DNA of 64,000 bases from Promethearchaeota archaeon (GTDB lineage Archaea; Asgardarchaeota; Lokiarchaeia; Sigyniarchaeales; SOKP01), in the NCBI GenBank assembly GCA_016840085.1, contig JAEOTA010000014.1, positions 1 through 64,000 on the forward strand, read 5' to 3'. The position numbers and the translations under genes were made by a program. This document shows positions 23,900 through 49,145 of this stretch, one piece after another. Each line of letters starts with the position of its first letter. Positions within the stretch are counted from its first letter, which is position 1. A model generated the notes under the pieces. The model was not told the origin of the DNA. It saw only the letters and a list, made by a program, of their open reading frames with translations, and searched no databases.

Positions 23900-25252
23900 T
23901 TACAAACGAGTAATATATCTATTTCTCTCCCATTCACTTACTATTACTCGATAGGCATCATATTCTTCAAGCTTAGCATAATAATAATTTTTAAATGCCA
24001 ATTCTCCGAATACCTCCTTCATGAAATCTGAATATCTAAAATACTTTAAAGCTTCATTTAGACTTCCCGGCAATGAAATAATTCCTTCTTTTTCCATTTC
24101 TTTTGAAGATAAATGGTATACATTTCTATCAGTTGGTTCTGTAATTTCAATATCTTCTGATATGATTCCATCTAACCCTGAAGAAAGAAGTACAGCAAAT
24201 TGGAGATATGGATTCCCTGAAGGGTCAGGACAACGGATCTCTACCCTAGCGGCGCTAGACTTACTATGAAAATCTGGAACCCTAAGTAGGGGGGACCTAT
24301 TTCGGAAACCCCATGCTAGATAAACGGGAGCCTCATATCCAGGAACTAATCTCTTATATGAATTTGGCCAGCTACTCAAAACAGCACACATTGGAATTGC
24401 ATGCTTTAATTGCCCTGCAATCCATTTTTTCATCAAAAGTGAAATATTATCATTATCATTTTCGTCATAAAAGACATTATTACCGTTCTTCCAAAGCGAT
24501 TGGTGGACATGCATTCCAGAACCGTTAATTCCTTCAAATGGTTTTGGCATAAAAGTTCCTATTAAATTATGTTGAGCTGAAACTGTTTTAACAATAGTTT
24601 TAATTGTTATTGTATTGTCCGCAGTATTAACCGCTTCATCATATCTAAAATCTACCTCATGTTGACCGAATGCAACTTCATGATGTATACATTCAACAGA
24701 AATCCCCATAGCATCACAATATTCCGCTATTCGATATCTTATCATTTCATTTATATCATAAGGATCATAATCGAAATACCCTCTCATGTCTGAGGGTTTA
24801 AACGCCTCCTTAGTGTCTGGAGTTAATATGAAGAACTCCATTTCTGGAGCACAATAATAATCATACCCTAGTTTTTTTGCTTTATTAACAGCTCGTTGTA
24901 ATATTCCGCGAGGGTCACCTTCATATCGTTCTCCATCCGGTTTATAGATATCACAAATCACCCTCGCAACCTTATTTTCTTTTCTCCATGGCAAAAGATA
25001 GAATGTGCTTGGATCAGGAAGCGCGACTTTATCACTCTCTTCAATCGCTCCGTACCCCGTTATCGAACTTCCGTCGAAATTTTCACCTACCTCAAAGATA
25101 TCCTCAATCCTATTTGAATTTATTTCAAAAGATTTAATAAGTCCATGGATATCAGTAAATTGAAGATAAATAAATTTAATATCTTCCTCTTTTATCTTCT
25201 TGATTACTTTATCACACATCTCTTTCCTTTTTGGATCATCTTTTTCAATCAT
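23900..25252 (-). CDS. glnA: Glutamine synthetase type I
   Basis: FDGSSI, HHEVA..QHE, FMPKP...NGSGMHVHQS, NSYKRLVPGYEAP. Confidence 0.98.
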   Translation of the reverse strand: MIEKDDPKRKEMCDKVIKKIKEEDIKFIYLQFTDIHGLIKSFEINSNRIEDIFEVGENFDGSSITGYGAIEESDKVALPDPSTFYLLPWRKENKVARVICDIYKPDGERYEGDPRGILQRAVNKAKKLGYDYYCAPEMEFFILTPDTKEAFKPSDMRGYFDYDPYDINEMIRYRIAEYCDAMGISVECIHHEVAFGQHEVDFRYDEAVNTADNTITIKTIVKTVSAQHNLIGTFMPKPFEGINGSGMHVHQSLWKNGNNVFYDENDNDNISLLMKKWIAGQLKHAIPMCAVLSSWPNSYKRLVPGYEAPVYLAWGFRNRSPLLRVPDFHSKSSAARVEIRCPDPSGNPYLQFAVLLSSGLDGIISEDIEITEPTDRNVYHLSSKEMEKEGIISLPGSLNEALKYFRYSDFMKEVFGELAFKNYYYAKLEEYDAYRVIVSEWERNRYITRL

Positions 25253-46053: not shown

Positions 46054-46275
46054 TTACTCATAGGCTAACCTAAATAATCTACTTTTATCTAAGTCATTCT
46101 CTTCTTTACATTTAGGGCAAATCCAGATCTTATCATTTTTTTTAACTGAATTAATACAATCATGACAGATTGCAATATCACATATACAATAATAAGTTCT
46201 ATCCATAGAATCTTTGCAACTCTTACCGCAAGTAAAACAAATTGGTGGAGTTCGTGTCATTTTTAACTTAAACAA
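46054..46275 (-). CDS. Stand-alone C4C4 RING-type zinc finger protein
   Basis: C-x2-C-x13-C-x-C-x4-C-x2-C-x12-C-x2-C. Confidence 0.75.
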   Translation of the reverse strand: MFKLKMTRTPPICFTCGKSCKDSMDRTYYCICDIAICHDCINSVKKNDKIWICPKCKEENDLDKSRLFRLAYE

Positions 46276-46829: not shown

Positions 46830-47150
46830 TTTTTTCCATTATTCTCGTTGTTAAGCTAAATAAATATTTAATATTTATTAAAATTATCAACTAGCATAGA
46901 ATATGTAAGGTTTCGCTTTTAAAAATTTATTATTTGTAGATCTCCCTTAAATTTATATGGTATTTTCAGAATTATTTTTATAAACTAAAATGATAAATTT
47001 TTATTTTAGTTGTAAAGACTTTACATTTACATCAATAGAATTTTCATTTCTAATTTAATACTTCATACTCCATTCTTATTATTAATAACAATAATATATT
47101 TATTTCTTTGATAGATTTTAAATATAAAAACATAAAAACAGATTAAAATT

Positions 47151-47291
47151 ATGTCAGAATGGAAAGAAAAATTAGACAGTTCAAAAAAAGACGAATTCTT
47201 TTGCACAGGATGAGGTATAGTTGATGGAATTATTCGATGTATTAAAAATATCAAAATTAGACACCATAAGAAAAGAATTTCAAAAAATTAA
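47151..47291 (+). CDS. Candidate micro-selenoprotein 1 (CxxU), 46 aa
   Basis: MSEWKEKLDSSKKDEFFCTG-UGA(47211)-GIVDGIIRCIKNIKIRHHKKRISKN-TAA; TATA-like TTTAAATA about 30 nt upstream. Confidence 0.6.
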
Positions 47292-47295
47292 AACA

Positions 47296-47363
47296 AATCT
47301 CAAGGATTAGATTTAAAAAATATTAGGAACTAATCCTATGAATTCAGCCAAGAATTCGAGATT
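47296..47363 (+). ncRNA. Conserved 3'UTR structured element, copy 1 (SECIS-like candidate)
   Basis: AATCTC/GAGATT closing stem; AGGATTAG/CTAATCCT stem with AAAAAATATTAG loop; GAATTC/GAATTC hairpin. Confidence 0.55.
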
Positions 47364-47521
47364 ATATCTTATTGTTTCACTTTTTTATATTAAATTAATA
47401 AAAGTTAAACCGTTTTTATAAAAAATTCACATTCTGATAGTAGCTTCTATTATTTATAATCGCTACCCTTTTTTCTTTAGGATACTTCAAAAGATTAGAA
47501 CATTAAAAGGTGTTTGTTAAA

Positions 47522-47665
47522 ATGGCTGAACAGAGAGATTATATTGATATTGATTATGACGAAAACTGTTATAATTCCAGTTGATCTTTTATTGATATGT
47601 GGTATCGAAGAGCACGCAAACTCAAAAAATTAAAAGAAAAACAGAGTAAAACAAATAATAAATAG
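47522..47665 (+). CDS. Candidate micro-selenoprotein 2, 47 aa
   Basis: MAEQRDYIDIDYDENCYNSS-UGA(47582)-SFIDMWYRRARKLKKLKEKQSKTNNK-TAG; AGGTG SD at 47508. Confidence 0.55.
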
Positions 47666-47729
47666 AATCTCAAAAAATTAAATCAAAAATGGTAGGATTT
47701 AATTCTAAGTTCTGCGTGAACAAGAGGTT
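47666..47729 (+). ncRNA. Conserved 3'UTR structured element, copy 2 (SECIS-like candidate)
   Basis: AATCTC/GAGGTT closing stem; AATTAAATC/GATTTAATT stem with AAAAATGGTAG loop; GTTC/GAAC hairpin. Confidence 0.55.
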
Positions 47730-47759
47730 TAATGATTAAAAATTAATTTTTTATTCTTT

Positions 47760-49145
47760 TTATGAGGGTATATGTGTTGGCGTATTCGATCCTTCTCCAA
47801 CTTTCCTATAAGTGAATCCCTTTTCCTCAACCAATTTTTTCTTAAAGATATTTCTGCCATCAATAATAATAGGTGTTTTCACTTTACTCTTTAAATCATC
47901 AAGATCAATATCATAATACTCACTATGGTTTGTGGCAAAAATGAGAACGTCAGCTCCAGAAACAGCTTTATTAAAGTCATTCGTTAATTCTGTGGCGTTG
48001 TAATCTCGCGGTTTCACATAAGGATCATGCGCAATAAATGTTATGTTGTGAGAATGATACCTATTTTTTAAGAATTTAACAATATTTTCAGTTGGTGTAT
48101 TACGAGTGTCATCTGTATTTGCCTTGTAAGAAATCCCTAATAAAGTAATTTTGATATTGTCTACTACTTTGCGTGATTCTCTAAAAGTATCTTCCATCAA
48201 TTCTATTATATGACGAGGCATGAAATCATTCAAATCTCTTGCTTTTAGCAAAATATCAGAGTTGAATTTATGTTCCGTGTATGTGCGATGACCATATTCG
48301 AGTAAATGAGGATCCTTTGTAAGACAATGACCTCCTACGCCTGAACCAGGATAATGCATCATTCGATCATCCCTTTGGTTAATTAATTCTATAATCTCAA
48401 ATATATTTCTATTAAAGTCTTCACATAATAACGCCATTTCATTTGCAAAAGCTATGTTAACATCCCTATAAGTATTTTCAATACATTTAGTTAATTCGGC
48501 TGTTAATGTATCAGTTACTCTTAATTCCTTCTTGACTACCTTTCCATATAAGAATTTTGCTCTATTATTTGCTTCTTCACACCCTCCTCCAATTACTCGT
48601 TCCATATCAGTTATATATTCGAGTAATTTCCCAGGCATAAGGCGTTCGAATGAAAATACTAGATAAAAATCCTCTCCTCTCTTTAGCCCACTTCCTTCCT
48701 CTAATATCGGTTGTACAATATTATTAGTTGTGCCCGGTGCTACTGTGGATTCAATTATAATCGTAGTTCCTTTTTTATTATGTTTAGATATTTCTTTAGA
48801 AACCTCTTTTAATGATTCGTATCTAGGAACTTTAGAATCTAGGTCAACAGGGGTCTGTACGTCAACTAGAATAAAATCTGCATCATCCACATCATCATAT
48901 TTGTCAGTAACCTTCAATTTTCCATTTTTTGCAACTCTAGCTATTAATTCATCTAAACCTGGCTCCTCTCCCTCAAAAGGATTCTTTCCACTATTGAGCC
49001 AATCAATCTTCCAACCTGATCTTTTTGATCTACGCTGAATTCCAGTAACATAAAAATTATCAACATCAGCTAATAATGCTGCCATTGGTATACCTACATA
49101 CCCCATGCCGATAACAACTATATTAGTTCTATCCATTTTAACCAC
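47760..49145 (-). CDS. Nucleotide-sugar dehydrogenase (WecC/WbpA family)
   Basis: GMGYVG, ESTVAPGTT, ENTYRDVNIA, GVGGHCL, YKANTDDTR. Confidence 0.93.
   Translation of the reverse strand: MVKMDRTNIVVIGMGYVGIPMAALLADVDNFYVTGIQRRSKRSGWKIDWLNSGKNPFEGEEPGLDELIARVAKNGKLKVTDKYDDVDDADFILVDVQTPVDLDSKVPRYESLKEVSKEISKHNKKGTTIIIESTVAPGTTNNIVQPILEEGSGLKRGEDFYLVFSFERLMPGKLLEYITDMERVIGGGCEEANNRAKFLYGKVVKKELRVTDTLTAELTKCIENTYRDVNIAFANEMALLCEDFNRNIFEIIELINQRDDRMMHYPGSGVGGHCLTKDPHLLEYGHRTYTEHKFNSDILLKARDLNDFMPRHIIELMEDTFRESRKVVDNIKITLLGISYKANTDDTRNTPTENIVKFLKNRYHSHNITFIAHDPYVKPRDYNATELTNDFNKAVSGADVLIFATNHSEYYDIDLDDLKSKVKTPIIIDGRNIFKKKLVEEKGFTYRKVGEGSNTPTHIPS

Follow-up and report, generated by a model that had tools for sequence, protein, structure and literature searches.

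Core-less three-way-junction RNAs behind two UGA-containing small genes of a Lokiarchaeia genome as candidate selenocysteine insertion signals

The window analyzed here, the first 64,000 nucleotides of contig JAEOTA010000014.1 of a Promethearchaeota archaeon (assembly GCA_016840085.1), contains two small reading frames, ORF A and ORF B, each with an in-frame UGA codon and each followed by a structured RNA element of about 65 nt. From comparative sequence analysis, both elements are very probably 3'-UTR selenocysteine (Sec) insertion signals, core-less derivatives of the Asgard (loki) SECIS that serve two candidate micro-selenoproteins. Since the element is coupled to the UGA codon and is lost with cysteine in its place, we infer that Sec is inserted. 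The candidate is best read as a three-helix lokiSECIS signal in which the AUGA/GA module has been replaced by short linkers; it keeps the apical arm (9-12 bp, with an 11-12-nt loop that contains AAA and a terminal AG) and, next to helix P1, a side hairpin with an NGCAA-type loop. By the published definition it is not a lokiSECIS, because the core is missing; it most likely works like one and descends from one. Counted against this reading were the retention of the element by two Cys-type B genes, the lack of a Cys homologue of family A among the genomes searched, and the absence of the AUGA/GA core itself.

We suggest that the folded element would recruit EFSec carrying Sec-tRNA, either directly or through an archaeal SECIS-binding factor. 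Recognition would most likely be by way of the apical and P3 loops as positioned by the junction, and the ribosome would then insert Sec at codon 21 of each frame to give two selenoproteins of 46-47 aa.

The locus and its genome setting

ORF A and ORF B are both unannotated, and the features of the locus are collected in Table 1. The first-pass annotation of this DNA had placed the elements directly behind the distal stop codons, and this placement is borne out: element 1 begins 4 nt past the UAA of ORF A and element 2 begins 0 nt past the UAG of ORF B. As the U-rich tract behind element 2 is a likely terminator, this element would fall in the 3' UTR. At least 7 T per 10 nt occur within 35 nt of most elements, a figure that comes from an AT-rich genome and a comparison without a control.

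Table 1. Coordinates of the locus in the window, and of canonical SECIS elements elsewhere in the host genome (contig labels are ours).
Feature	Position	Strand	Basis or remark
TATA-box-like motif upstream of ORF A, putative archaeal promoter	47095..47105	+	conserved column block in relatives' alignment; putative function
ORF A, 46-aa candidate selenoprotein, family A: C-x-x-U, then basic amphipathic helix	47151..47291	+	homologues in ~105 genomes of family
In-frame UGA, codon 21 of ORF A, putative Sec	47211..47213	+	invariant in evaluable homologues, never TAA/TAG
Element 1, candidate core-less three-way-junction SECIS variant	47296..47363	+	fold, covariation, covariance model
Element 1 P1	47296-47301/47358-47363	+
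Element 1 P2	47303-47313/47327-47337, loop 47314-47326	+
Element 1 P3	47340-47357	+
TATA-box-like motif upstream of ORF B	47453..47460, second at 47415	+	conserved in relatives; putative function
ORF B, 47-aa candidate selenoprotein of family B, with acidic N-terminus, C-x4-U motif, conserved WY and basic helix	47522..47665	+	Cys homologues exist
In-frame UGA, codon 21 of ORF B, putative Sec	47582..47584	+	TGA in 114 distinct sequences, TGT/TGC in 7, TAA/TAG never
Element 2, candidate core-less three-way-junction SECIS variant	47666..47729	+	fold, covariation, covariance model
Element 2 P1	47666-47671/47724-47729	+
Element 2 P2	47676-47684/47696-47704, 11-nt loop 47685-47695	+
Element 2 P3	47709-47721	+
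U-rich tract directly 3' of element 2, likely archaeal terminator	47745..47762	+	sequence composition
Convergent UDP-glucose/GDP-mannose dehydrogenase family gene	47760..49145	-	Pfam; context only
Host canonical SECIS elements	C78:7003 and 8326, C82:24461 (+), C82:91168 (-), C41:14057, C9:52114, C24:112261, C44:46863, C19:107600

The host genome is 4.7 Mb in size and AT-rich, and TAA makes up 72% of its stop codons. Its genes, a Rab-like GTPase and a RING protein among them, and its type of SECIS are those expected of a Lokiarchaeia-type Asgard archaeon. The genome appears to possess the full Sec machinery, with EFSec and PSTK represented by candidates that score below the curated cut-offs. 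A SepSecS gene is present, and both of the two selD genes have an in-frame TGA. A tRNA-Sec with a UCA anticodon adjoins SepSecS on its upstream side (contig C32, ~24375-24527); its D arm and its T loop are each interrupted by an insert, probably an intron in both cases. Both Rfam and ARAGORN failed to call this tRNA, Rfam because the two inserts break it up. Across the order, Sec machinery is almost universal. Upstream of both ORFs, a small RING-like protein is encoded at 46054-46275 of the window (minus strand; Pfam zf-RING_4, E 0.0012, below cut-off), and in at least one contig from a metagenome (L158) a similar block of small genes lies ahead of the locus.

A DNA search found the locus kept in 33 of 36 genomes of the same genus. 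With a combined model, the element was detected in 103 of 130 genomes from a single Lokiarchaeia-type family (11 genera), nearly always behind the UGA of one of the two small ORF families, and in 0 of 19 genomes from other families of the order; a phylum-wide sample added no more than one weak match outside the family. Weak model matches in genomes G090 (a partial hairpin with no family ORF) and G197, together with a second match in G070, were taken as chance. One genome (G006) carries five elements, with two copies of the locus (L043 and L040), one of which has an extra ORF B.

Fold, strand and conservation of the RNA element

The three helices proposed for both copies are recovered in each, with fold z-scores of -4.1 and -2.1 relative to shuffles, and the compensatory change reported for P2 is present as two G-C/A-U swaps between the copies when they are registered from the loop. 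The outline given earlier for P2 and its loop in copy 1 had to be mended: three further pairs (one a mismatch here) extend the helix and leave a 13-nt loop, where relatives have a loop of 11-12 nt. Trained on copy-2-type sequences alone, a covariance model detects copy 1 with an E-value of 3e-5 and gives no other significant match over the 4.7-Mb genome; the element thus occurs there twice only.

Among 90 new hits in relatives, 95% of cells pair and two-sided changes are seen at 17 of 20 pairs, a level of pairing and covariation that none of 500 shuffles reaches; slid registers pair at 17-59%. This alignment was fitted to the model, and plain MAFFT alignments agree with it. The covariation that had been claimed for the whole junction is strong in P2 and P3, whereas P1 is nearly invariant and displays mainly conserved complementarity. 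In the unselected alignment, the A directly after P1 and the AAA and last G of the apical loop are invariant columns. The junction linkers are short, mostly 0-4 nt, and vary in length and sequence with no conserved G. No covariation was found for a loop-loop pairing between L2 and L3, and an Rfam search with the elements gave no relevant match.

The wobble pairs of P2 comprise 202 G-U against 24 A-C, an excess that assigns the RNA to the same strand as the small ORFs. This count weighs on the idea that the elements are a short repeat or serve the convergent dehydrogenase gene of the opposite strand as terminators. Element 2 does lie 30 nt from the stop of that minus-strand gene and also folds on the minus strand, but the wobbles favor the plus strand, element 1 lies 400 nt from the dehydrogenase gene, and the element tracks the UGA genes rather than this neighbor. 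With strand bias and distribution both against it, we regard the terminator or repeat reading as refuted, with a negligible chance of being correct.

The conservation data also speak to an account in which the UGA is a normal stop and the ORFs are selenium-sensing leader peptides, with the RNA switching between P2 and an alternative hairpin. The ORFs are of leader-peptide size, and the UAGGA hairpin that had been raised as a possible switch can be drawn in both window copies; it is not conserved, however, and its mean pairing probability is 0.006 versus 0.88 for P2. All five alternative pairs are possible in only 78 of 261 elements, and the hairpin beats P2 in just 2 of the 261. The next gene is usually convergent, so that nothing lies downstream to be regulated, and the stretch beyond the UGA is under selection as protein, with continuous Cys homologues, as described below. 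We consider a leader-peptide switch highly improbable and return to the elements as Sec insertion signals.

The UGA codon and its coupling to the element

Profile searches of 161 genomes of the class found family A in ~105 genomes, each true match having one in-frame TGA; family B was found in ~64, five of which do not have the TGA. At the UGA position, 7 family B sequences are Cys homologues. The 14 codons after the UGA are free of stops in every sequence examined (0 of 145 in family A, 0 of 107 in family B), and pN/pS in this segment is 0.33 (A) and 0.23 (B) in frame versus ~1 in the other frames, for pairs of relatives that are not independent. The UGA codon itself changes only to TGT or TGC and never to TAA or TAG, despite the prevalence of TAA among the stops of the genome. 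Purifying selection downstream and Cys-only codon changes together indicate that the UGA is read as an amino acid, for which Sec would be expected. Judged by these patterns of sequence change, UGA in families A and B is a sense codon.

What the two proteins do is less readily suggested. Sequence searches with families A and B gave no Pfam, NCBIfam or PDB match, a word-index protein search with ORF A returned no candidate, and database copies of both are mostly uncalled or called with Trp. The profile comparison between A and B is weak (probability 67%), and paralogy of the two is possible. Structure models of modest confidence depict a short helical peptide in which a basic helix begins with the Cys/Sec pair, an arrangement that weakly suggests a thiol/selenol redox or metal-binding role, perhaps with A and B acting as partners. 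One family B gene (L161:1501-1639, plus strand), sister to a Cys-type gene, has the UGA and an intact element, lacks the conserved Cys and Trp, and is possibly degenerating.

The element follows the UGA codon closely. Counting distinct sequences from both genomes and metagenomes, an element of its own stands 70-106 nt behind each of 256 UGA codons, typically at ~85 nt. UGA-type family B genes have their own element in 110 sequences and in one more that the parser missed; four others are cut by contig ends, and none is without it. Family A genes have their own element in 146 sequences, plus one divergent copy seen by eye, and 7 distinct family A sequences lie in A-B bicistrons with a single common element placed after B. 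We found no complete UGA-type gene without an element on its transcript. Among Cys-type B genes, by comparison, the element is absent from five of the seven, all five with an intact frame, and is kept in two (L046 and L158). The first-pass annotation had tied the element to UGA genes, and in the host genome it stands at no other gene. Its reading of the RNA as a non-canonical SECIS is well supported by this coupling and by the coding selection downstream of the UGA.

The Cys-type B forms are not one clade (p-AU 2e-80). The five sequences without the element occupy three places in the tree, and a single origin of these is not rejected (p-AU 0.35, with long branches), so that loss of the element amounts to one to three events. 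The two Cys-type genes that keep the element are nested among UGA forms, which fits either a recent change or continued service of the element to ORF A. In another genome (G024; L016:1426-1496, minus strand) ORF B is deleted and an orphan element is decaying, with a broken P1 and an altered loop end.

The same distribution helps in judging whether the RNA is instead a stability or processing element of the 3' end, with the UGA decoded without it, by SECIS-independent Sec insertion or by Cys or Trp readthrough. Its place at the 3' end ahead of a U-rich tract would suit such a role, as would the one terminal copy of the bicistrons and the two Cys-type genes that retain the RNA. We nevertheless judge it improbable, because no other gene in the genome bears the RNA, because five of seven Cys-type genes with an intact frame have none behind them, and because the loop and layout are held in common with known SECIS elements.

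Relation to lokiSECIS and other known signals

In the text of Mariotti et al. (2016; PMC4989117), lokiSECIS has a 9-bp stem, flanked by AUGA on its 5' side and GA on its 3' side, and an 11-nt loop that starts A-rich and closes with a G, mostly preceded by A. The AUGA/GA core is described as always present in lokiSECIS, and published models, as their text describes them, treat it as obligatory. Like lokiSECIS and the Asgard type I eSECIS-like elements described in the text of PMC4989117 and of Huang et al. (2024; PMC11227280), the candidate lies directly behind a gene or overlaps its end, and one copy may serve two genes, as one lokiSECIS does for hdrA-vhuD (text of PMC4989117). Its P2 of 9-12 bp, with covariation, compares with a lokiSECIS stem of ~9 bp; of 265 elements, 77 have a loop of 11 nt and 181 one of 12 nt, with A before the last G in 95%, and copy 2 of the window matches the 11-nt lokiSECIS form exactly. 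Unlike lokiSECIS, the candidate has no AUGA before the stem (it is not among the 15 commonest 4-mers there) and no GA/AA after it, a tandem G-A pair being present in 2 of 265 elements over stem lengths of 7-13. In place of the core it has the short linkers and 1-2 extra Watson-Crick pairs; its P1 is nearly invariant, and it is limited to two small gene families in one genome family. The first-pass annotation had remarked that it could place neither the RUGA/GA quartet nor the GAA/A motif consistently, and this agrees with these counts and with the finding of GAA/A in 0 of 260 regions. Its further suggestion that this may be a new recoding element is not supported in the sense of a wholly new one, as the apical arm and the entire three-helix layout are common to canonical lokiSECIS. 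A canonical SECIS was also sought in these transcripts and did not rise above the reverse-complement level, at a loose setting that found 15 of 15 selD controls.

Canonical lokiSECIS elements occur elsewhere in the host genome, behind four vhuD, one vhuU-like and two selD genes and two unannotated UGA ORFs; a search with the VhuD family gave Cys forms first and was left out of the comparison. Most of these elements are predicted to form three-way junctions in which a side hairpin follows the GA directly, with the closing helix beside it, and the side hairpin often has a GCAA-type loop, in the host elements as in relatives' loci (L273-L301). In relatives, 25 of 29 selD SECIS elements parse as P1-core-P2-P3, where shuffled flanks score similarly in 9% of trials, and most of their side loops begin with GC, as in the candidate. 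The text of PMC4989117 and PMC11227280, figures and supplements aside, makes no mention of the side hairpin. The apical hairpin pattern alone has 165 genome matches versus 97-118 in shuffles, so a loop match carries information only when combined with position and the remaining helices; a loose AUGA pattern search was rejected as too unspecific.

The survey of canonical elements turned up further loci. An unannotated ORF on host contig C19 (L240:216-686, plus strand) has no Pfam match; its Gly-Cys is followed by a pair of adjacent UGA codons, a canonical SECIS lies ~120 nt downstream, and it is a candidate new selenoprotein. On contig C82, a small unannotated ORF (L239:286-534, plus strand) with one hydrophobic segment and a U-x-x-x-C motif, followed by a canonical SECIS, is a candidate membrane selenoprotein. 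At C4:77334 (minus strand) there is a canonical-looking type I SECIS for which the parser found no upstream UGA ORF. The UGA stop of a VhuU-like gene on contig C41 (L241:330-671, plus strand) is the SECIS core, which reads UUGA; a UGA stop within the SECIS core has been published for Loki VhuU.1. In a relative (L292 of G079), selD is followed by a type I-like SECIS and not by the type II usual for selD.

SECIS recognition in archaea is stated as unanswered in the text of PMC4989117 and PMC11881835. We tentatively propose, from the parts that the two classes share, that the Asgard SECIS reader could recognize the apical AAA...AG and the NGCAA side loops and not a kink-turn core. This proposal competes with one that concerns the recognition step only and leaves the SECIS role as it is, in which the junction would be a complex k-junction with non-linear G-A or A-A pairs, bound by the same L7Ae-type reader as the canonical elements. 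In the k-junction of Wang et al. (2014; PMC4005666) the third helix lies beside the closing helix, and the canonical lokiSECIS layout, with its third helix in the non-bulged strand beside P1, fits this arrangement. Complex k-turns are moreover hard to recognize from sequence (PMC4005666), the same paper warns that such motifs can be cryptic, and the A after P1 is invariant. The candidate nonetheless lacks the tandem G-A pairs that define a k-junction at the base of the NC helix: a GA/GA or GA/AA pair is found in 2 of 265 elements with stem lengths of 7-13, and the linkers are short and variable, without a conserved G. We therefore think a concealed kink-turn unlikely.

As a core-less Sec insertion signal, the element would have consequences beyond this locus. 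The published text on Asgard and archaeal SECIS, figures and supplements aside, yielded no core-less variant, side hairpin or families A and B. According to that text, it is the AUGA/GA core that makes lokiSECIS the proposed ancestor of the eukaryotic SECIS. If our reading is true, the elements are a natural deletion experiment showing that Lokiarchaeia can do without the AUGA/GA motif, to which SBP2 later came to bind in eukaryotes. A natural variant minus the core, beside canonical elements in one genome, would separate needed from dispensable parts, and the variant and a canonical element would be matched baits for finding the archaeal SECIS reader. Published Asgard SECIS search patterns that require the GA core would miss such signals, and the 2026 list of 11 archaeal selenoprotein families (text of PMC13188914) would gain two candidates. 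The two SECIS classes may also differ in efficiency, giving a different ranking of micro-selenoproteins under selenium limitation.

Wider comparison sets the candidate among other 3'-UTR signals. With the eukaryotic SECIS (form 1, read by SBP2) it has in common a 3'-UTR position, unpaired apical adenines and a distance of at least 70 nt from the UGA; unlike that element, it has three helices, no non-Watson-Crick quartet and no Rfam match, and SBP2 is reported missing from Asgard archaea in the text of PMC11227280. The SECIS of Methanococcales and Methanopyrus, as described in the text of PMC11881835, is likewise an archaeal 3'-UTR Sec signal, but its GAA/A bulge with a G-C clamp is found in 0 of 260 transcript regions of the candidate. 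When placed in M. maripaludis, a SECIS of lokiarchaeal origin showed no activity (PMC11881835). The Asgard selenoproteins named in the text of PMC11227280 are SelD, VhuU/FrhA, HdrA, VhuD/FrhD and Prx-like, AhpF-N-like and DsbA-like proteins. The products of A and B, predicted to be short helical peptides, differ from these in having neither a hydrogenase motif nor a thioredoxin fold, and resemble them in combining an in-frame UGA with a 3' signal, in the CxxU motif of family A, and in size, which is similar to that of VhuU.
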